Source: Candidatus Obscuribacterales bacterium
GTDB taxonomy: Bacteria; Cyanobacteriota; Vampirovibrionia; Obscuribacterales; Obscuribacteraceae
DNA: 64,000 nt
Direction: 5' to 3'
NCBI GenBank assembly: GCA_965228855.1
Contig: CBDDIJ010000002.1
Span: forward strand, 992,001-1,056,000
Numbering within the stretch: the stretch's first letter is position 1; each line of letters starts with the position of its first letter. A model generated the notes under the pieces. It saw only the letters and a program-made list of their open reading frames with translations. It did not search any database and was not told the origin of the DNA. This document shows positions 10,489-63,515 of the stretch, piece after piece. The translations under genes were made by a program, and so were the position numbers.

Positions 10489-11349
10489 ATGTTTGCTTCC
10501 CAAATAAAACCACCGACTGATGGACGTACCTCCCACACGGAGGCAACAATGTGGGACCCGTTCCTCGCGGACATGGACTCGGCGAAATTTCACATAGTCA
10601 TACATGTGCCATTTATCGCATTGGGTCGGATGCAGTTCTTCTGGCAGCGCTTCGAGCGACTCAGGAAACGCGGTGTAATGATCTGCGTTTTTCTTCGGGA
10701 GCCGGAGGTGTGGGACGGGCGAGATTTCCAGAGTGATCAGGGTTTCGAGGCTATCATTGCGAAGTTGCGAGAGCTTGGAGTTCACGTAACTCCGAAAAAG
10801 CTGATTCACGAAAAATTGGCCATCATTGATGGGCGGATTCTCTGGGACGGCTCGCTCAACTATCTTAGTCACAGGAATACGAGAGAGCGAGCGAATCGGT
10901 TTGCAAGTCGACAAGTAGTGAGGGAAGCCATGAATTTGCATGATATGAATGGTTGTAATCAATGTGATGATAATCGGAAGGCTAGTTCTGCCGGCGGCAC
11001 TGCTGAAGCACTTCTTGGTGGTTTGAGTGTGCATCGCAAGTTGGCGGGCGTATCGCAAGGCACCTTCGCAAAGTCTATAAAAACTAGCCAAGGCTGGGTT
11101 TCGCGTGTTGAAAGCGGAAGGCATGAGAGTGTTTCTGTCCGCACGCTTTGCGAATATTCGCTGGCGCTCGGTGTCCGACCGGTCTTAGTTCCTGACATTT
11201 TGATACCTGCCGTAACCCAGATGCTCGAGGAATACATTCACTCGATGTCCACCGACTCGCAGATTATCGAAAAGTCGCGAACCTTGACCAAACCTAAAAA
11301 AGTGACGGTTAGTGGCAAGACCAATGGCAAGGTGCAAGTCAAGACGTGA
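10489..11349 (+). CDS. PLD-like (single HKD) nuclease domain - CxxC - XRE-type HTH fusion protein (paralogue 1)
   Basis: HEKLAIIDGRILWDGSLN = HxKx4Dx6GSxN; CNQC; RKLAGVSQGTFAKSIKTSQGWVSRVESG. Confidence 0.82.
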   Translation: MFASQIKPPTDGRTSHTEATMWDPFLADMDSAKFHIVIHVPFIALGRMQFFWQRFERLRKRGVMICVFLREPEVWDGRDFQSDQGFEAIIAKLRELGVHVTPKKLIHEKLAIIDGRILWDGSLNYLSHRNTRERANRFASRQVVREAMNLHDMNGCNQCDDNRKASSAGGTAEALLGGLSVHRKLAGVSQGTFAKSIKTSQGWVSRVESGRHESVSVRTLCEYSLALGVRPVLVPDILIPAVTQMLEEYIHSMSTDSQIIEKSRTLTKPKKVTVSGKTNGKVQVKT

Positions 11350-37347: not shown

Positions 37348-39159
37348 ATGCGTCTAAAGTCCTTAAATCCGATTCGCAATCTCAAGGCTTTCTATAAAGC
37401 TGCGACCATCGGCGTCGTACTGGTCGCATTTGTAACATTGTCCGGGTTTCAAATCCTTTCTATGCAGCGGGAGGTGGATGAAGCTTATCGAAAAGATCGT
37501 GACATCACAGATGGTGTCGTGCTTATTCACCGGGCAATGAAAGCCGCTTATGATGCGCTTCGCGAAATTGTTTATTATGAAACAGATCCTGCCAGTGCGG
37601 GCAAGAATTATGAGCAACGGTTTCAAAAAAGAATTGTGGAGCTTAGCGAACTTGAGGGTCAATTGGCACGCCAGAGAGCCACGAAGCAAACAAATTTGAA
37701 GACGTTCATCGACGATTTGAAAAAAGAGTTGGGAAAAGTAAATGAGCTAGCCAATGTTCCATACGAGTCGTTTACAAAGATAATGGCTGTTCAACGAGCT
37801 TCCTATTTAGGGCATGAGCTGACGCGTATTACTGAAAAGATGCTTGCGGAGCAGGAGCGCATGAGTGTTAAAACGCGGAAGGAACTCGATGAAAAGCGCG
37901 ATAAATTGCGGAATACAGTTATCTTTGAATTTGCCTCCGGTGTCAGTCTGGTGGTATTGCTGGTGGTGATATTCAGTTTTGATCAATTGATTCAACTCAA
38001 CATAATGATGGCGAACTCCAATCGGTTTGCGCGAGGTGAGGAGCTGCTTCCGCAGGTTCCCGGCTCCGATGAGTTTGCGCAGTTGGATGAAACGTTTCAC
38101 TCAATGGTTGCGTCGATCAATGCGCTCACGGAGCGCGAGAAAGCAGTGTTTCGCAACACGACCGATCTGATTTTTGTTCTGGATGGTACCTTCCGCGTGA
38201 CGTTTATCAACGACGCAAGCCGCTCTATGCTGGGGATTGCGCCCGAGGACTTGTTGCAGGTTTCGGTCGTCGAATGGAGTGGCACTATCGTTAAATCGCT
38301 TGAGAAGTGCGTCGAGCTGGAGAATTTTACGTTTGAAGAATTGTTGAAAGGCGCCGATGGGCAGGTTGCCGAAGTGGAGATTTCCGCGCACTGGTCTGAG
38401 CGGGATCGGTCGTTTTACTGCGTAGGGCATGATATCGGGTCGCGCAAAGAGCTCGAGCGCATGAAACAGGGTTTTCTGGCGATGGTGACTCATGATTTGC
38501 GCAGTCCGATTGCTGCCAATCAGTTGGCGCTGGAAATGTTGCTGGAAGAGCCAAAGATGGGCTCGTTGTCTGAGGATGGCGAACGATTGATTCATCGAAT
38601 TTTGTCGAGCGACAAGAAGTTGACGGCGCTGATTAATGACTTGCTCGATATTGAGAAATTGAACGCCGGGCAATTGAGTCTCGATATGGAGCTGGTTTCC
38701 TTCAACGACCTGATTGAAGAGTCGATTGGTTTGCTGGAGCCGCTCATCAAAGCTCAGAAGATTGAGTTGAAACGCGATGATGTGGATACGCTCATCTACT
38801 GCGACTCGGCACGGATCGTTCAGGTTGTTTCTAACATTTTTTCAAACGCGCTGAAGGTTTCAAAACCAGGTGATACCATCGAGCTGCGTTTCAGTGAAAC
38901 CCCCGAGGAGTCTATAGTTTCAGTAAAGGATAATGGTCCGGGAATTCCTATCGAGTTTCTTCCCATGCTGTTCGAGCAGTATACGCAAACTGGTGAGAAG
39001 TCGCTTATGAAGAAGGGAAGCGGCTTGGGGCTAGCGATAAGCAAAAAGCTTGTCGATTTGCACGACGGCGAAATCGTGGTGTCCACCGAAGTCGGCAAGG
39101 GAACCTGTTTCGAAATCCGCCTCCCCAAGCGACTTTCGCCCTCCAAGAACTACCACTAA
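37348..39159 (+). CDS. Membrane sensor histidine kinase (HAMP-PAS-HisKA-HATPase)
   Basis: Two TM segments, DEFAQL HAMP, THDLRSP, DNGPGI, GLGLAI. Confidence 0.9.
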   Translation: MRLKSLNPIRNLKAFYKAATIGVVLVAFVTLSGFQILSMQREVDEAYRKDRDITDGVVLIHRAMKAAYDALREIVYYETDPASAGKNYEQRFQKRIVELSELEGQLARQRATKQTNLKTFIDDLKKELGKVNELANVPYESFTKIMAVQRASYLGHELTRITEKMLAEQERMSVKTRKELDEKRDKLRNTVIFEFASGVSLVVLLVVIFSFDQLIQLNIMMANSNRFARGEELLPQVPGSDEFAQLDETFHSMVASINALTEREKAVFRNTTDLIFVLDGTFRVTFINDASRSMLGIAPEDLLQVSVVEWSGTIVKSLEKCVELENFTFEELLKGADGQVAEVEISAHWSERDRSFYCVGHDIGSRKELERMKQGFLAMVTHDLRSPIAANQLALEMLLEEPKMGSLSEDGERLIHRILSSDKKLTALINDLLDIEKLNAGQLSLDMELVSFNDLIEESIGLLEPLIKAQKIELKRDDVDTLIYCDSARIVQVVSNIFSNALKVSKPGDTIELRFSETPEESIVSVKDNGPGIPIEFLPMLFEQYTQTGEKSLMKKGSGLGLAISKKLVDLHDGEIVVSTEVGKGTCFEIRLPKRLSPSKNYH

Positions 39160-39796
39160 AGAAGGTAGTAAAAAGATTTGGGGCGAGATGGAGTCGGCGA
39201 GGCATTCTTGGGCGATTGCGTTCGTTGGCTGAGTCTGTCTTGTCTATGGGAGAGCGCCGATTTTTTGCAATTGCGTCATAGCCAGATAGCCAAAGGTCTG
39301 GGCGCTAGGTAACCTGAATTCAGGTATTGTCCTCTCCATGAGGGTTTTGACCCCAGAAATAGCACTAGAGAAGATAGTAGGCAAATTTGGGGCGAGATGG
39401 CGTTGGCGAGGCATTCTTGGGCGATTGTGTTCGTTGGCTGAGTCTGTCTTGTCTACTGGAGAGCGCCGATTTTTTGCAATTGCGTCATAGCCAGATAGCC
39501 AAAGGTCTGGGCTCTAGGTGGGGTGAATTCAGGTATTGTCCTTTCCATACGGGTTTTGACTCCAGAAATAGCACTAGAGAAGATAGTAGGCAAATTTGGG
39601 GCGAGATGGCGTTGGCGAGCCATTCTTGGGCGATTGCGTTCGTTGGCGAGTCTGTGTTGTCTACGGGAGAGCGCCGAATTTTTGCAATTGCGTCATAGCC
39701 AGATAGCCAAAGGTCTGTACGTTTGGTAGGGTGAATTCAGGTATTGTCCTCTCCATGAGGGTTTTGGGACGCTCGTCGAAGCTAGATCATATAGTA
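39154..39796. repeat. Tandem array: three ~209-bp units delimited by four TACTA-N7-TAGTA-type boxes, each with a central 54-bp core
   Basis: Boxes at 39154, 39363, 39572, 39780; cores at 39240, 39449, 39657. Confidence 0.9.
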
Positions 39797-47818: not shown

Positions 47819-48025
47819 ATGTCGAAGAATCCGCTCGAAGGCCGTGGTCGCGCCGAAGAGGAGCGTTGGGCTCGTGAGCAGGACGCTCGTGCGATCGAGG
47901 AGATGAAGAAGAAGGACGCCGCCAAGAATGGCGGTGCCGAGCCGGACAAGAAGAAGGGCTGCGGCTGCGGCGGCAAGCGCAAGCAGGCCGACGGCAAATG
48001 CCCCTGCGGTTCGTGCGGCAGCTGA
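47819..48025 (+). CDS. Small protein: charged helix plus Cys/Gly-rich tail
   Basis: AGGAG RBS; AEEERWARE helix; CGCGG..CPCGSCGS. Confidence 0.72.
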   Translation: MSKNPLEGRGRAEEERWAREQDARAIEEMKKKDAAKNGGAEPDKKKGCGCGGKRKQADGKCPCGSCGS

Positions 48026-48138: not shown

Positions 48139-48612
48139 ATGTCCGCCAAGAATGTGCATGCCAGCAAGGCGTTTCAGGCGAGCCTGGAGCGCGTCAATGG
48201 CGTGCTAGAGAATCCGAGCAAGCGTTTTCGTGCGGCGGGTCCTCGCAGTAAGTTAGCGTTCATCGGCATGCAGCTGGTTGCTTCGCAGCTTGCCTTGTTT
48301 GCCGCCGAACTTTCCTTGCTGACTGACGAAGTCGAAATCCAGCTGGTCAACGAGCACAAGGCGACCATTCGCCGTGAGCTGGTTGTGCCCGAAGTTGCAT
48401 TCGAGGCGTTTGCCACGATGTTGCTGAAGGCAGACGGCGCGCTCAAGACGTCCACGGGCAGCAAAGACAAGAATCTCATCGGCACTTATCGCGTCCCCGT
48501 CGTCCTCGATGTCGCCGCGCTCAAGAATGCCGAAGCCTTCATGCAAGAGATGCGCGCGCTTGTCGACGCTCTCTACGGTGAAGGCATCGAGACGTTGGAT
48601 AAAATCAGCTGA
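48139..48612 (+). CDS. Hypothetical protein
   Basis: AGGA RBS, 157 aa, followed by a terminator. Confidence 0.65.
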   Translation: MSAKNVHASKAFQASLERVNGVLENPSKRFRAAGPRSKLAFIGMQLVASQLALFAAELSLLTDEVEIQLVNEHKATIRRELVVPEVAFEAFATMLLKADGALKTSTGSKDKNLIGTYRVPVVLDVAALKNAEAFMQEMRALVDALYGEGIETLDKIS

Positions 48613-48637: not shown

Positions 48638-48720
48638 GCGGTGAGGATGCGCGTGCAAACGGCGTCTTCACCGCCTTTTCTTTATTGGGCTTGGGCGAGG
48701 TTCAACTATCGAAAGTAGCG
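48638..48720 (+). terminator. Terminator (48638-48683) plus box (48704-48720)
   Basis: gcggtgaggatgc/gcgtcttcaccgc stem with T-rich tail; AACTA-tcgaaag-TAGCG. Confidence 0.72.
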
Positions 48721-48769
48721 GAGCGCTCCGACCTCTGTTGATCGGGGTGTGATTGGAGGACCCAAGCGG

Positions 48770-48948
48770 GATTCAAGTGTCCAAGCGGGTCGCTGCAAAT
48801 TAGATTGCGGGATTAGCGGCAAAAGCTGCAAACCAATTTGCAAGCGCCTGATTTAGAACCCAAACTAGCCCGATTCAAGTATCCAAGCCGGTCGCTGCAA
48901 ATTTGATTGCAGGATTAGCGGCAAAAGCTGCAAACCAATTTGCAGGCG
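48770..48948 (-). repeat. Two copies (period 102 bp) of the reverse complement of the 51.7-52.1 kb unit
   Basis: ttagcggcaaaagctgcaaaccaatttgca present in both copies and in the reverse complement of the 51742 units. Confidence 0.88.
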
Positions 48949-49429
48949 CTCGATAGCGGAAGAGAAGTGCGATATCGAAAGGCATTAAGTCGACCAGATT
49001 TGTCGATAATGGTCGGCTGGCCGAGCTCCCGCTAATTGTCAAGAATTTGAGTTTCGCCATATTATCCAAAGCACCAGAGCCCACGACATGAGCTCTGACG
49101 CCGTTCGTTTCATGGGGCTAACGTTCAAGGGCGGGTGGAATGAGCTTTTCCAGCCCTGGAAAGGGTGGTGTTTTGCGGTCGGCGCTGGTAGGTTCGAATC
49201 AACTCTATTATTCGTTGCCTAATGAACCCAGGTTTTCTTTAAACGAATATCGCTGCGCTGCACAATTCGGATTAGATTTTTCGCTGAGACGCGAGGAGAA
49301 ACAACCCGTTTTGCGATACCGAATTTTGGTATTACTGGCGGTGCCGGTCGCGGCAAGAGTTGGATTGCGGGTTCGCTATTGTTTCACGGACAGCGGCATG
49401 GTGCCGCTGTGGTAGTTCGGAGATTTGTT

Positions 49430-50485
49430 ATGACTAAGAAGAACAACATCGCTGTTTCCGCCACCATCGCCCGTCTCGGCGTGGTGCTCGAGCCCGATGG
49501 CAGCATCGAGGAAGCGGAAGGGATTCTGAATCCCGCTTGCTGTCGCAGTCGCGACGGCGAACTCATCATTTACTCTCGCAGCGTCGAGAAGGGTAACATC
49601 TCGCGCGTCGGTCTCATCACCGCCTCCGAGGAAAACGGCAAGCTGTCGGTCAATCGTCGCGGTTACGCGCTTGTGCCGGAAGCTGACTACGAGCTGCGCT
49701 CGAAGCCAGGCGGTCAGGGTGTCGAAGATTGTCGCGTCACTTTCGTGCCTGCGCTCGACCTGTATCTCATGGCTTACACCGCCTTTGGAAATGACGGACC
49801 GCGCGTCGCGGCTGCCATTTCCAAAGATGGTTTCAACTGGGAGCGGCTCGGCCCGATGCACTTCCCGCGCCTGCGCAATTGCGCGCTCGACGATAAAGAC
49901 GCGGCGTTCTTCCCGGAACCTGTTCTTTCGCCGTCCGGCGAGCTCTGCATCGCGATGTATCACCGTCCGATGGTGTTCCTGCCTGACGTCAGTGACAGCG
50001 TGACTGCGGCTCTGAGCCTGCCGTTCAGCAAGCGTCAGTGCATGCGCATCGCGTATATCCCGTTCGATGCGGTGAAGGGCGACATCAAAAACCTGACCAG
50101 GGTCAAGTCGTCGCGTCTGTTGCTGCCGCCGAACCGCAAGTGGGGCTCGCTGAAGAACGGCGCCGGCACTCCGCCTGTGCGGACTTCGCTGGGTTGGCTG
50201 TCCGTCATGCACGGCGTCGACGCTGTGCCCAAGGGCGACGGCAAGTGGTCGATGCGTTACAGCGCCGGTCTCGTGATTCACGACATCGAGCGCCCTGACC
50301 GCATCATCTACGAATCGCCGGAGCCTCTGTTCTTCCCGGAAACTCCGGAAGAGCTGACCGGTGTCGTCAACAACGTCGTCTTCCCGACCGGCATCGACCC
50401 GCTGAGTGACAGCGAATTCGATGTTTATTACGGGATGGCTGACTTCCGTATCGGACGCGTTCGGCTGACCGTGAAGGCTGGCTGA
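49430..50485 (+). CDS. GH130-like glycoside hydrolase/phosphorylase
   Basis: NPA, GVEDCRVT, YTA, DKDA.FFPE, HRP, GAG.PP, NVVFPTG, YYG.AD. Confidence 0.85.
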   Translation: MTKKNNIAVSATIARLGVVLEPDGSIEEAEGILNPACCRSRDGELIIYSRSVEKGNISRVGLITASEENGKLSVNRRGYALVPEADYELRSKPGGQGVEDCRVTFVPALDLYLMAYTAFGNDGPRVAAAISKDGFNWERLGPMHFPRLRNCALDDKDAAFFPEPVLSPSGELCIAMYHRPMVFLPDVSDSVTAALSLPFSKRQCMRIAYIPFDAVKGDIKNLTRVKSSRLLLPPNRKWGSLKNGAGTPPVRTSLGWLSVMHGVDAVPKGDGKWSMRYSAGLVIHDIERPDRIIYESPEPLFFPETPEELTGVVNNVVFPTGIDPLSDSEFDVYYGMADFRIGRVRLTVKAG

Positions 50486-50500
50486 GTAGGCGCGTTAACT

Positions 50501-50594
50501 AAGAAACACCGGGTAAGGGAGTCGGGCTTGAGGGCTCGATTTGCTTACCCGGTGCTTCTTTCTCTTGTGCGCAAGGCAACGAGTCGATGTAGTA
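50501..50594 (+). terminator. Terminal hairpin (50501-50560) plus box (50578-50594)
   Basis: caccgggtaag/cttacccggtg stem; AACGA-gtcgatg-TAGTA 17 nt later. Confidence 0.72.
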
Positions 50595-50617
50595 GCGCTA
50601 AAGGTTCGAGATTCGCG

Positions 50618-51481
50618 TTATTTGACTATCGTTGGATTTGAGATCGGCGCGATGATTATGCTAGAAGTTTCCCGCCCAGATTTCTTTGAACGGCTCGGCG
50701 TCCTCTTTTGCGGAAGAGGGTTCAGTGTCGGAACCTCATCCCAGTAGCTTCGCGTGATGTTTAGAACTGCTGCAGCCGTGTCCTCAGGAACTACTGCAAG
50801 CTTTAGATCGAGAGCTTTGAAGACACTCAAGAATGCGTCCATGTGACAGTTTTTTCCTCTCTCCATAGCTCCAATGGTTTGATGCGGCACTCCGGAAAGC
50901 CGTTCTAGGTCGACTTGCGAGAGATTGAGGCGAACGCGCTGCTTCCTAAGCAGCACGCCAAATTGTGTCATGGGAGCATTGACGCTGCTGTTGCCCCAGA
51001 GTTCGTTGTTTTGTTTCATACATTCCTCACAGTAATCTAGATCGAATTTTTCACAAGCTTCCTCGATTTCAGCAGGGTCTTCGGTTCGTCGCATGCACTC
51101 AGAAGTGTTGAAATGGCTAAAAACGTTCATGCTCCCGAAGTACATGACGCGTTTGTCGATGAGCACGAACTTGTGGTGAAACTTACGTGCATTGAGGTGA
51201 AACCTCCATGACCTCAGAATGTCCAGGGACGTTGTGCGGTTTTGTGCGTAGTCGGACTTCAAATCGTCTGGGAGCGCTTCTTCCATTGCGCCAACGGATT
51301 GTGTCGTTAGGCACGATGCCACCCCTCTGTCTTTGAGAGAACTGAATAGTCGAGAACCATCGGCGAGCCGCCTCGGATGCAGAAATGGGCTGTGGATAAT
51401 CAATCGAGATCTAACGCCAGGTAGGTCTGCTTTGAACGCGGACCAGAATTCTGCCGAGTTTAGAAGTTCGGCTGTGCGCAT
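50618..51481 (-). CDS. PLD-like (single HKD) nuclease domain - CxxC - XRE-type HTH fusion protein (paralogue 2)
   Basis: HHKFVLIDKRVMYFGSMN; CEEC; RVRLNLSQVDLERLSGVPHQTIGAMERG. Confidence 0.82.
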   Translation of the reverse strand: MRTAELLNSAEFWSAFKADLPGVRSRLIIHSPFLHPRRLADGSRLFSSLKDRGVASCLTTQSVGAMEEALPDDLKSDYAQNRTTSLDILRSWRFHLNARKFHHKFVLIDKRVMYFGSMNVFSHFNTSECMRRTEDPAEIEEACEKFDLDYCEECMKQNNELWGNSSVNAPMTQFGVLLRKQRVRLNLSQVDLERLSGVPHQTIGAMERGKNCHMDAFLSVFKALDLKLAVVPEDTAAAVLNITRSYWDEVPTLNPLPQKRTPSRSKKSGRETSSIIIAPISNPTIVK

Positions 51482-51741
51482 AGAAGCAATACCTCGGTTA
51501 TGGATAATAGACGCCAGAAACGAGGACTGCGCCTCATTGCTCGGAAGTATGAGGTAGGGTACGAAAAATTTTGCGGTCGCGGAATCAAGAAGTATTGCCG
51601 GAGATGATGATGGGACGCGAGGTTAGAGGCTCGCGCAGTCGTTTTTTTGATGGGCTTGCAGGAATCTACCGAAAATGCCCATTAATAAATTTGGGCGGTA
51701 CAGTGGTTTTCGATACTTAGAAACAAGGATAAGTGTGTGTC

Positions 51742-52100
51742 CCTGCAAATTGGTTTGCAGCTTTTGCCGCTAAACCTGCAATCAAAATTGCAGCAAGCCG
51801 CCGGGTCACTCGAATCAGGCTGATTTGAGGCGCAAATGAAGAACCTGCAAATTGGTTTGCAGCTTTTGCCGCTAAACCTGCAATCAAAATTGCAGCAAGC
51901 CGCCGGGTCACTCGAATCAGGCTGATTTGAGGCGCAGATGAAGAACCTGCAAATTGGTTTGCAGCTTTTGCCGCTAAACCTGCAATCAAAATTGCAGCAA
52001 GCCGCCGGGTCACTCGAATCAGGCTGATTTGAGGCGCAAATGAAGAACCTGCAAATTGGTTTGCAGCTTTTGCCGCTGAACCTGCAATCAAAATTGCAGC
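51742..52100 (+). repeat. 102-bp tandem repeat, 3.5 near-identical copies, each with two TGCAA-N6-TTGCA palindromes
   Basis: Units start at 51742, 51844, 51946, 52048. Confidence 0.95.
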
Positions 52101-52210
52101 GACCGTTCGGATAGCCTATCGGCGAGTCATTGACGCCGCTTTTGAACCAGGTTAGAAGCAGTGGCATCCTCAAAATAGCGTGCCAGCCGTTGTTTGCGGT
52201 AAATGGATGG

Positions 52211-52288
52211 TACTAAAGAATTTAGTAGGCAGGCCGCGGAAGCGAAAGGGACAAGAACATCAGGCTTGCGCGCCTAAAATCTTGCCCT
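52211..52288 (-). terminator. Terminal hairpin (52247-52288) plus perfect box (52211-52227)
   Basis: TACTAAA-GAA-TTTAGTA; agggacaaga/tcttgccct stem. Confidence 0.7.
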
Positions 52289-52392: not shown

Positions 52393-52995
52393 TTAGGCCG
52401 CCGGAGCGACGGACGCGGGAGCAGGCTGCGTTGCGAACGGCGCGATGGGCTCGATTTCGTCGATCAAGCCCTCGGCGAGAGCCTGCTCGGCGGTGAGCCA
52501 CCAGTCGACGCCGCCGGCGACGTTGGTGTTGATCTTCTCCAGCGTCAGACCGTTGGCGACGTTGCCCGTGCGGCTGCACAGGATGGCGCTGGTCTGGGCT
52601 TGGAGCTGCTCGCAGCGGCGGAGTTCCGCGCGCATCTGGGACAGGGTGCCCTTCATCTCGGAGCTGACTTCGTGAATCAGCAGCCAAGCGTGGGCGCCCA
52701 TGACGCGCACGTCGCCCGCCTGCAGCAGCCAGCCGGCGCAGGACGCGGAGCGACCGTGGACGACGACGGTCACATGGTGACCGGCAGCGCGCAGCATGTT
52801 GATCTGGTCATACATGTACAACGCGTCCAGGATGTTGCCACCCTGACTGTTGAGGACGATCTTGACCTTCCGGTTCGGGTTGTCCCGGCACCAGTTGATG
52901 ATCATGATCATGAAATCCACCGCCGACGTCTGGTTGATGCCGGTGGCGAACACGAAAACACCCTTCAGAGGGTCAGTTTGGATTGCGTTTTCCAT
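52393..52995 (-). CDS. Divergent ClpP-like (S14) protease
   Basis: LNSQGG, SASCAG (Ser), LIHE (His), DWWLTAEQAL..GLIDEI (Asp). Confidence 0.85.
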   Translation of the reverse strand: MENAIQTDPLKGVFVFATGINQTSAVDFMIMIINWCRDNPNRKVKIVLNSQGGNILDALYMYDQINMLRAAGHHVTVVVHGRSASCAGWLLQAGDVRVMGAHAWLLIHEVSSEMKGTLSQMRAELRRCEQLQAQTSAILCSRTGNVANGLTLEKINTNVAGGVDWWLTAEQALAEGLIDEIEPIAPFATQPAPASVAPAA

Positions 52996-62717: not shown

Positions 62718-62859
62718 ACTTCGCGCCAGTCCGGTGAAAACGCCGATGACGACTGGCGCGAAGTGCGGAGGCGAGCCTTCGACCGCAAACCGAACACGCT
62801 GATAGCCCCCGGCTCTCAGCGTGTTCTCCTTTCGAAATACAGCACTATATAAGATAGTA
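62718..62859 (+). terminator. Two hairpins (62718-62764, 62792-62826) plus box (62843-62859)
   Basis: 14-bp perfect stem; gaacacgctga/tcagcgtgttc stem; CACTA-tataaga-TAGTA 16 nt later. Confidence 0.78.
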
Positions 62860-63332
62860 TGCATGATTCAGACAGGGCGGGAGTTTCGAGTGTTTTGTCA
62901 GAATAGAAAAGACTAGCACTATAGAAGATAGTAGTAATGATCGAGACAGAGTAGTAGTTTTCGAGTGTTTTGTCAGAATGGAATGCTCCGGTGCCTACGC
63001 CACGATGCCGGAATTTTCGAATTCCGTCATAGCCACATAGCCAAGACAGGAAATTCCGGTGTCCTGTTTAGTCGCGGAGGGGGCCGGGTACTGACACCAC
63101 AACGATTCTCGGACTTCTGAAGATATGAAGGCATATAGTAGCGAGATTCCTGTCTACGCCACGATGCCGGAATTTTCGAATTCCGTCATAGCCAGATAGC
63201 CAAGACGGGAAATTTCGGCGTTCTGTCTAGTTCGGGAGGGCTCCAGGTGCTGACACCACAACGATTCTCTGACTTTTGGAGATATGAAGGCATATAGTAG
63301 CGGGATGGGTGAAGATATGGAGGCATATAGTA
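62843..63332. repeat. Nested array with five boxes and two 54-bp cores
   Basis: Boxes at 62843, 62917, 63124, 63283, 63316; cores at 62991 and 63150; repeat periods 74, 159 and 33 bp. Confidence 0.88.
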
Positions 63333-63515
63333 GCGAGGTTTTTGGGGACTACGTAGTTTCCCCACTGACTTTTTGATTGGGGTTGTGTATAAACGGTAAA
63401 AGCGCCCTGTTAGACCACTTACTACTTACTAAACGCAAGCTGCACTCAGACCTCTGAGCCGAAGGCGTGCTGCAAATCCGTACTCGTGTTTAGCTGCGCG
63501 AGTTTAGGAGCTATT

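Follow-up and report, generated by a model that had tools for sequence, protein, structure and literature searches.

The window analysed here comprises 64,000 nucleotides of the genome of a Candidatus Obscuribacterales bacterium (assembly GCA_965228855.1, contig CBDDIJ010000002.1; G000:C2:992001-1056000 in our notation, in which G numbers denote genomes, C numbers contigs and L numbers homologue loci). Obscuribacterales are non-photosynthetic relatives of cyanobacteria. At 48.7-52.2 kb of the window lies a gene for a 287-amino-acid (aa) protein with a phospholipase D (PLD) domain, a CxxC linker and an XRE-type helix-turn-helix (HTH), predicted to be a site-specific nuclease. It is flanked by mutually inverted arrays of palindromic repeats (family A); the right array starts 260 nt upstream of the gene, and a GH130 gene lies between the gene and the left array (Table 1). 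This layout of arrays, GH130 gene, hairpin and PLD-HTH gene had been proposed in an earlier note on the sequence, and it was confirmed by the positions of the cores, by the period of 102 bp and by domain matches. Contigs from four sequencing runs gave the same layout, one of them covering 48925-51767. At the orthologues of the gene an upstream family-A array is present as well, with 5 cores in the sister genome G007 and at least 2 in L054, where the contig ends. The left array has 4 cores in G007 and is replaced by a family-B palindrome in L054. Open reading frames across the 102-bp units gave noise-level scores and were taken as by-products of the 34-codon period.

Table 1. Features of the locus in window coordinates. 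Box scores come from a matrix trained on the genome-wide motif (working cut-off 11-13).
Feature	Position	Strand	Evidence or remark
PLD(HKD)-CxxC-XRE-HTH gene (paralogue 2, 1043k), 287 aa, predicted site-specific nuclease	50618..51481	-	PLDc_2 and HTH_3 matches
Right family-A array, 4 cores of 53 bp (51742, 51844, 51946, 52048), period 102	51742..52100	+	repeat mapping; Tandem Repeats Finder, 3.5 units
Left family-A array, 2 cores (48792-48844, 48894-48946), inverted relative to right array	48792..48946	-	repeat mapping
GH130 beta-mannoside phosphorylase-family gene	49430..50485 (ATG 49430)	+	PF04041, E 2e-23
Sigma-70-like promoter of GH130 gene, 10/12 match	49036..49065	+	consensus match only; -35 region kept in L054
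Hairpin terminator between GH130 and convergent PLD-HTH gene	about 50503..50565	+	sequence and palindrome scan
Box CTACTAWA-N6-MGTA, downstream of ClpP-like gene	52211..52228	-	matrix score 20.8
Degenerate box	50578..50595	-	matrix score 5.6
Very degenerate box, usual distance behind terminator of 157-aa gene	48703..48720	+	matrix score -0.8
Half-site resembling paralogue-1 repeats	51575..51589	+	relic or chance
Left flank, 157-aa hypothetical gene	48139..48612	+	at the empty site of G002 and G006, adjoins ClpP-like gene
Right flank, ClpP-like gene	52393..52995	-	profile match
Paralogue 1 (1002k) with local family-E repeats	10489..11349	+	both absent from syntenic site of G007

In the 287-aa protein the PLD domain occupies about residues 1-135 (H102/K104/D109, S117/N119 and E128), followed by C151/C154 and by the HTH at about 178-225. 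The signature of PLD-superfamily nucleases, HxK(x)4D(x)6GSxN with a downstream Glu, is intact; all of the residues named are invariant in an alignment of 29 members, and the full catalytic motif is kept in 137 of 149 further homologues. The ratio of nonsynonymous to synonymous substitution rates (dN/dS) of the gene is 0.11-0.14. The structure model (predicted local distance difference test score, pLDDT, of 83) gave Foldseek matches to Zucchini (E 2e-6), NucT and Nuc, pointing to a PLD fold, with TrmBL2 and TrmB also among the top matches. The HTH domain resembles restriction-modification control proteins and HipB. Best PADLOC matches of the two domains were MkoC (29/29), MkoB (27/29) and control protein (up to 16/29), and Mokosh-type PLD domains and control-protein HTHs are the likely sources of the fusion. 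A search of the ESM Atlas returned matches that were all below 0.9 and serve as leads only.

Homologues were found in 36 of 103 genomes of the same family, at 1-8 highly diverged copies per genome. At least 389 clusters at 50% identity scored an E of 1e-30 or better; the metagenome scan contributed one locus only. In 7 of the 36 genomes the match covers the PLD domain only, in long frames. G051, G058, G059, G060, G062 and G065 hold the PLD domain within frames of about 930 aa with no HTH match, possibly an ancestral helicase-type context. Homologues of 363-402 aa with two matched stretches (P0007, P0012, P0019, P0023, P0030 and P0150) perhaps carry a second HTH.

The core of family A is 53 bp long and consists of two 18-bp dyads, CTGCAA-N6-TTGCAG, 33 bp apart, within a unit of 102 bp. 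G000 contains 11 arrays with 46 copies: relative to its five paralogues, two arrays lie within 2 kb (those of this locus), one at 9.7 kb and six at 42-445 kb, and the remaining two are on a contig with no paralogue. Spacers measure 49-50 nt at all 11 loci; between loci they are faintly related and diverged at a fixed period, and inside one array they are near-identical. A CRISPR array was rejected, as the spacers are not unique and the Rfam scan returned one chance-level match only. In the earlier note genome-wide dispersal of the 102-bp family had been set against specificity. Although the family is indeed dispersed, this does not refute specificity, because RAYT-cognate REPs (repetitive extragenic palindromes) are also dispersed in the genome, with the gene flanked by cognate repeats (Nunvar 2010, PMC2817692). 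The real question is therefore whether gene and family are paired.

Other families with cores of 53-58 bp occur in G000, of which B (145 loci), D (23) and C (4) are dispersed and E is local. Each intact paralogue of G000 and G007 goes with a family of its own: 67k with C, 103k with B (between B copies), 1002k with E, 1043k with A, and a G007-only gene with D, where it sits within 6 + 4 units (the names in thousands denote G000 genes). The 918k paralogue, which has lost the HKD motif, has no such family, and its neighbouring repeats are not dispersed. Locus frequencies give a probability of 0.0026 that four genes would each fall in a different family, in a post hoc calculation with E left out. 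Related repeats go with related proteins, since B and D are related and their genes (103k and L028) are sister proteins, and L026 and L027 provide another case of sister proteins with sister repeats. A search of 104 family genomes detected family A in 2, apart from one 30-nt match, and the same two are the sole carriers of this orthologue; as close kin they represent about one event. Between congeners the families turn over completely. As proposed earlier, the recognition-helix region differs between paralogue 2 and paralogue 1.

Across the protein family the flanking palindromes are unrelated in sequence and built alike, each from two mutually inverted dyads of 17-21 bp at a distance of about 33 bp (three turns). 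In the discovery set of 25 non-redundant loci (9 near-duplicates dropped) this architecture was present within 700 nt of the gene in 10/25 loci vs. 3/237 far blocks. Among 37 held-out loci, fetched after discovery, it was seen in 13, corresponding to 13/71 near vs. 2/173 far blocks. Within non-coding DNA of the held-out genomes, palindromes were present in 10 of the 40 gaps next to a homologue vs. 2 of 104 other gaps (p 5e-5). The palindromes are mostly on one side of the gene; they occupy both sides for 103k and L028, and also here, where the two sides are inverted with GH130 between. For RAYT genes the classical arrangement is cognate repeats inverted on both sides. Many of the PLD-HTH sites follow the stop codon at a distance of 8-80 nt, and many single palindromes are within 300 nt of the gene.

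Seven palindromes from among the highest-scoring ones were looked for elsewhere. All seven recur in their own genome, at about 16, 9, 7, 7, 4, 2 and 1 further loci, and gave at most weak or partial matches in the other genomes covered by each search (4 to 103). In the single-contig genome G041 all copies fall in 2.28-2.99 Mb, the sector with both genes. Partial matches also revealed a further palindrome family with a 71-bp period in G013 (C9:154858-155455, C25:300043-300357 and C13:621886-622059), a genome with six paralogues.

Similarity of the recognition helix, taken over six positions fixed beforehand, correlates with half-site similarity over 31 hand-picked gene-palindrome pairs (rho 0.27, permutation p 0.0005; 0.23 when partial on PLD similarity). 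For 418 more distant pairs the correlation with half-site similarity was 0.22 for the helix vs. 0.06 for the PLD domain. The proposal that each paralogue has co-diversified with a cognate array thus gains from the five families at five paralogues, from the held-out adjacency and from the helix covariation, and at the level of sequence comparison the protein-repeat pairing is well supported. The same observations bear on coincidence, namely that the genes merely occupy repeat-rich gaps of a plastic, origin-proximal region whose repeats are spread by an IS110 recombinase, a tyrosine recombinase or an unassembled RAYT. Palindromes are indeed found in 8% of gaps in a 1.13-Mb region vs. 0.6% elsewhere, there are 17 tyrosine-recombinase matches, and family-B cores are interrupted by two related insertions of about 1.25 kb (G000:C2:858557-859811 and 987643-988908) that G007 lacks. 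Yet different rare families at different paralogues, dispersal within the own genome, the held-out non-coding control and helix/half-site covariation are not what coincidence predicts, and a search for Y1_Tnp, the RAYT domain, gave no match in G000 (the control search was positive in 6/14 genomes). We regard coincidence as very improbable.

The conservation of the repeats suggests how they may be read. In families A (11 loci) and D (22 loci) half-sites are fixed and spacers are free, with no left-right covariation; in family B (136 loci) such covariation is mild, 0.51 vs. 0.39. Recognition of a hairpin was rejected on these grounds, and for A and D the pattern fits double-strand binding better. 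Cores of family B diverge less than their flanks between strains (3.6 vs. 9.4%).

Conserved cores of this kind could also be operators of a self-regulating or chromosome-organising protein, similar to C proteins or TrmBL2, that spread by host recombination, gene conversion and selection for binding. The control-protein and HipB likeness of the HTH, the TrmBL2 and TrmB fold matches and the many single palindromes close to the gene agree with this explanation. It leaves aside, however, the invariance of HKD, SxN and the Nuc-type Glu and the intact motif in most homologues. Furthermore, sites just past a stop codon would be of little use to an operator, and neither the complete turnover of families between congeners nor the non-dispersed repeats beside the HKD-less 918k paralogue are accounted for. 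We consider the operator explanation unlikely, although it is the strongest of the alternatives.

Comparison of G000 with G007 provided a contrast between strains with and without a D-type gene, which was not found in G000 (best match 54%). Syntenic DNA of 420 kb contains 24 D copies in G007, 10 of them at the gene, vs. 4 in G000, and the four shared D sites hold one unit each in G000 vs. 3, 2, 6 and 2 units in G007. Genome-wide and away from the gene, D arrays have on average 3.3 units in G007 (14 loci) vs. 1.2 in G000 (20 loci; p 0.0005), with array sizes entered by hand; a hidden Markov model counted 31 copies at 23 loci in G000 (1.35). Since G000 assembles a 13-unit family-A array, assembly collapse does not explain the shorter D arrays. 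Array lengths of family A differ between the two strains too, and one G007 array stands at a site that is empty in G000. Presence of the gene itself differs at three sites, with replacement tracts that often reach into the 3′ ends of flanking genes. In events 1, 7, 13 and 20 of G000:C2 vs. G007:C3, intergenic replacements often start in the last codons of the flanking gene and take the terminator with them, as happens when alleles are exchanged through homologous recombination.

Homing endonucleases are selfish site-specific nuclease genes, and a homing-like or addiction-like nuclease that spreads by cutting and allele conversion, with arrays as a by-product of break repair, would suit these strain differences as well as the patchy occurrence of few, highly diverged copies per genome. 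The cognate site, however, flanks the gene and is not disrupted by it, so that the target is kept beside the gene, as it is not in homing endonucleases, and empty alleles hold another family or only a box. Moreover, no neighbour gene (methylase, helicase, toxin or antitoxin) recurs, the largest shared neighbour family being present in 4/71 loci, and we know of no PLD homing family. Such a nuclease appears improbable.

Taken together, we propose that the predicted PLD-HTH nuclease binds, copies and tandemly amplifies the palindromes that adjoin it, each paralogue with its own family, in a manner similar to RAYTs and REPs, and we assign this reading a probability of roughly 0.62. The XRE helix-turn-helix would bind the 53-bp palindrome beside its gene, with one protein dimer per dyad sub-site on double-stranded DNA, and the single-HKD PLD domains would pair into active sites, as in Nuc and BfiI. 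The pair of dimers might then nick or cut the DNA within the core or next to it, by way of a phosphohistidine intermediate. As the DNA is rejoined or repaired by recombination, a unit of fixed length would be duplicated in place (102 bp in A, 73 bp in D), and new intergenic sites would occasionally be seeded.

Several observations weigh against this proposal. Binding, cutting, mobility and copying are steps that we infer. Family E is not dispersed although it lies beside the intact paralogue 1, and G000 keeps 23 D loci, as relics, with no D-type gene. The D contrast comes from one strain pair, in which G007 is slightly richer in A and B copies too (16 vs. 11 and 65 vs. 53). A half-swap of arms, a sign of central cleavage, showed no asymmetry over 27 orthologous B cores (p 0.42), where both flanks had to be alignable, a selection that works against detection. 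Only 23 of the 62 non-redundant loci reach the strict palindrome score, and enrichment in the held-out set is not confined to a spacing of 33 but extends to all of 29-33 and to 38. Among held-out genes whose HKD is degenerate, two have no palindrome but L119 has one. The helix correlation is a modest effect obtained with best-scoring palindromes. Finally, no joint skipping the block was seen in the contigs of the four runs, which does not show its absence.

The whole 48.7-52.2 kb interval is missing in the congeners G002 and G006, as a synteny comparison proposed in the earlier note revealed; there about 260 bp separate the flanking genes, and a single symmetrical box-like motif stands between the two terminators. 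In G005 different DNA lies between the flanking genes. This raises the possibility, also put forward earlier, that 48704-52227 forms a single mobile element, bounded by boxes, which captured GH130 or received it by insertion. The parts do not, however, behave as one element. L054 keeps the gene, the right array and GH130 and has another palindrome on the left, so that the left array is exchangeable. GH130 is near the gene in 2 of 66 homologue loci, both in near-identical strains, is found in 3 of 8 genus genomes, and in G006 stands at another site (84%); gene and GH130 do not travel together. Its next relatives are in Eremiobacteraeota/Vulcanimicrobiota and Rhodospirillales (50-56%), which suggests horizontal gain.

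The boxes go with family B. About 275 of them lie behind terminators in C2:1-1.13 Mb, and a strict box is within 300 nt of 116/119 family-B loci at two preferred distances one turn apart, whereas in six congeners it is at control level. Strain-level breakpoints are elsewhere: 23 large G000/G007 differences, judged by eye, end inside gaps or flanking gene ends. For these reasons the box was rejected as an attB/attL/attR or dif-like site, and as to a promoter, no conserved -35 was seen in 275 aligned sites. Of the three boxes placed at this locus by the earlier note only that at 52211 clears the working cut-off, those at 50578 and 48704 scoring below it. The capture of GH130 by a box-bounded element is thus not borne out, and a single element is the least credible of the explanations considered. 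The interval is variable but built of separable parts, and GH130 is an independent transcription unit, a passenger in a repeat-rich gap.

Elsewhere in the region boxes also duplicate alone, at periods of 26-78 bp, and at 39143-39768 and 62840-63340 of the window there are tandem units of 209 and 159 bp with one box and one B core per unit. Nearly all boxes and palindromes are inside a region of about 1.1 Mb (G000:C2:1-1,130,000 and the C5 tail) around dnaA (C2:793 kb), which also holds the skew minimum and in which about half of the genes have a GC content at third codon positions (GC3) of at least 0.7 vs. about 0.55 elsewhere. C4 (182 kb) is high in GC3 as well, yet almost box-free.

Two further features had been noted at the locus. 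A gene-1-like site exists at 51575-51589 but is not conserved, as 1 and 3 changes are seen in the two nearest relatives (G007 and L054); it has no clear second sub-site, and the genome gives 4 matches to a pattern fitted after the fact. Likewise, the position of the gene between convergent operon ends is correct here and is not a general rule, as it applies to only 15 of the 55 homologues for which both neighbours were called. At 47819-48025 of the window there is a 68-aa gene without a Pfam match, whose product has a metallothionein-like tail rich in Cys and Gly.

The origin and spread of bacterial extragenic repeats have been explained mainly for REPs, through HUH transposases. Our literature search, on the pairing or the host and limited to titles and abstract openings with few subscription journals covered, found no published description of this gene-repeat pairing. 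There is an even chance, in our estimate, that Obscuribacterales harbour mobile-DNA systems of a new class, domesticated or selfish, in which a PLD nuclease or strand-transferase aimed by an evolvable XRE helix would copy and amplify its own 50-56-bp bipartite palindromes, convergent with RAYT/REPIN by unrelated chemistry. If so, PLD chemistry would join the mechanisms that move DNA, and hundreds of natural protein-target pairs would make an HTH code readable and would offer a nuclease scaffold of paired dimers that is compact (about 260 aa). With gene and target side by side in dozens of genomes, matched vs. mismatched pairs are directly testable.

Among known palindromic targets, integron attC sites are 55-60-bp imperfect palindromes with paired sub-sites; the repeats described here have neither the attC core consensus nor a cassette order. 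Likeness to the PLD domains of Mokosh MkoB/MkoC and DISARM DrmC and to C proteins is limited to partial domain matches, and unlike Mokosh and DISARM the gene has no helicase or defence operon and no recurring neighbour in 71 loci. As in BfiI, Nuc, NucT and Zucchini there is a single HKD per chain, and as in BfiI a separate DNA-binding domain provides specificity. The BfiI reports describe a PLD dimer with one active site at the dimer interface, an intermediate with the enzyme covalently bound to DNA, and a capacity for transesterification (PMC2853115, PMC2475615). Unlike BfiI, the PLD-HTH protein has no methylase partner, uses an HTH for the recognition domain, contains a CxxC linker and has its own target repeats beside the gene.

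The closest resemblance is to REP/REPIN/BIME systems with RAYT, or TnpA-REP (PMC2817692): a low-copy, fast-evolving nuclease gene is flanked by cognate extragenic palindromes, often arrayed; the repeats are dispersed, strain-specific, commoner with the cognate gene and sometimes clustered in its region; several gene-repeat pairs occur per genome, and protein and repeat co-evolve. The enzyme here, however, is a PLD plus XRE-HTH protein (PLDc_2 and HTH_3) and not HUH/Y1. Unlike REPs, the repeats are 50-56 bp long with four hexamer half-sites at fixed geometry, the cores of A, B, D and other families have no GT(A/G)G head (GTAG) or short hairpin, and their conservation points to double-strand operator reading, not to a single-strand hairpin. 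By enzyme and by repeat type the PLD-HTH system thus falls outside REPIN-RAYT and, if our reading is true, the same genomic signature has been produced by a second, unrelated enzyme family, the arrangement having evolved twice.

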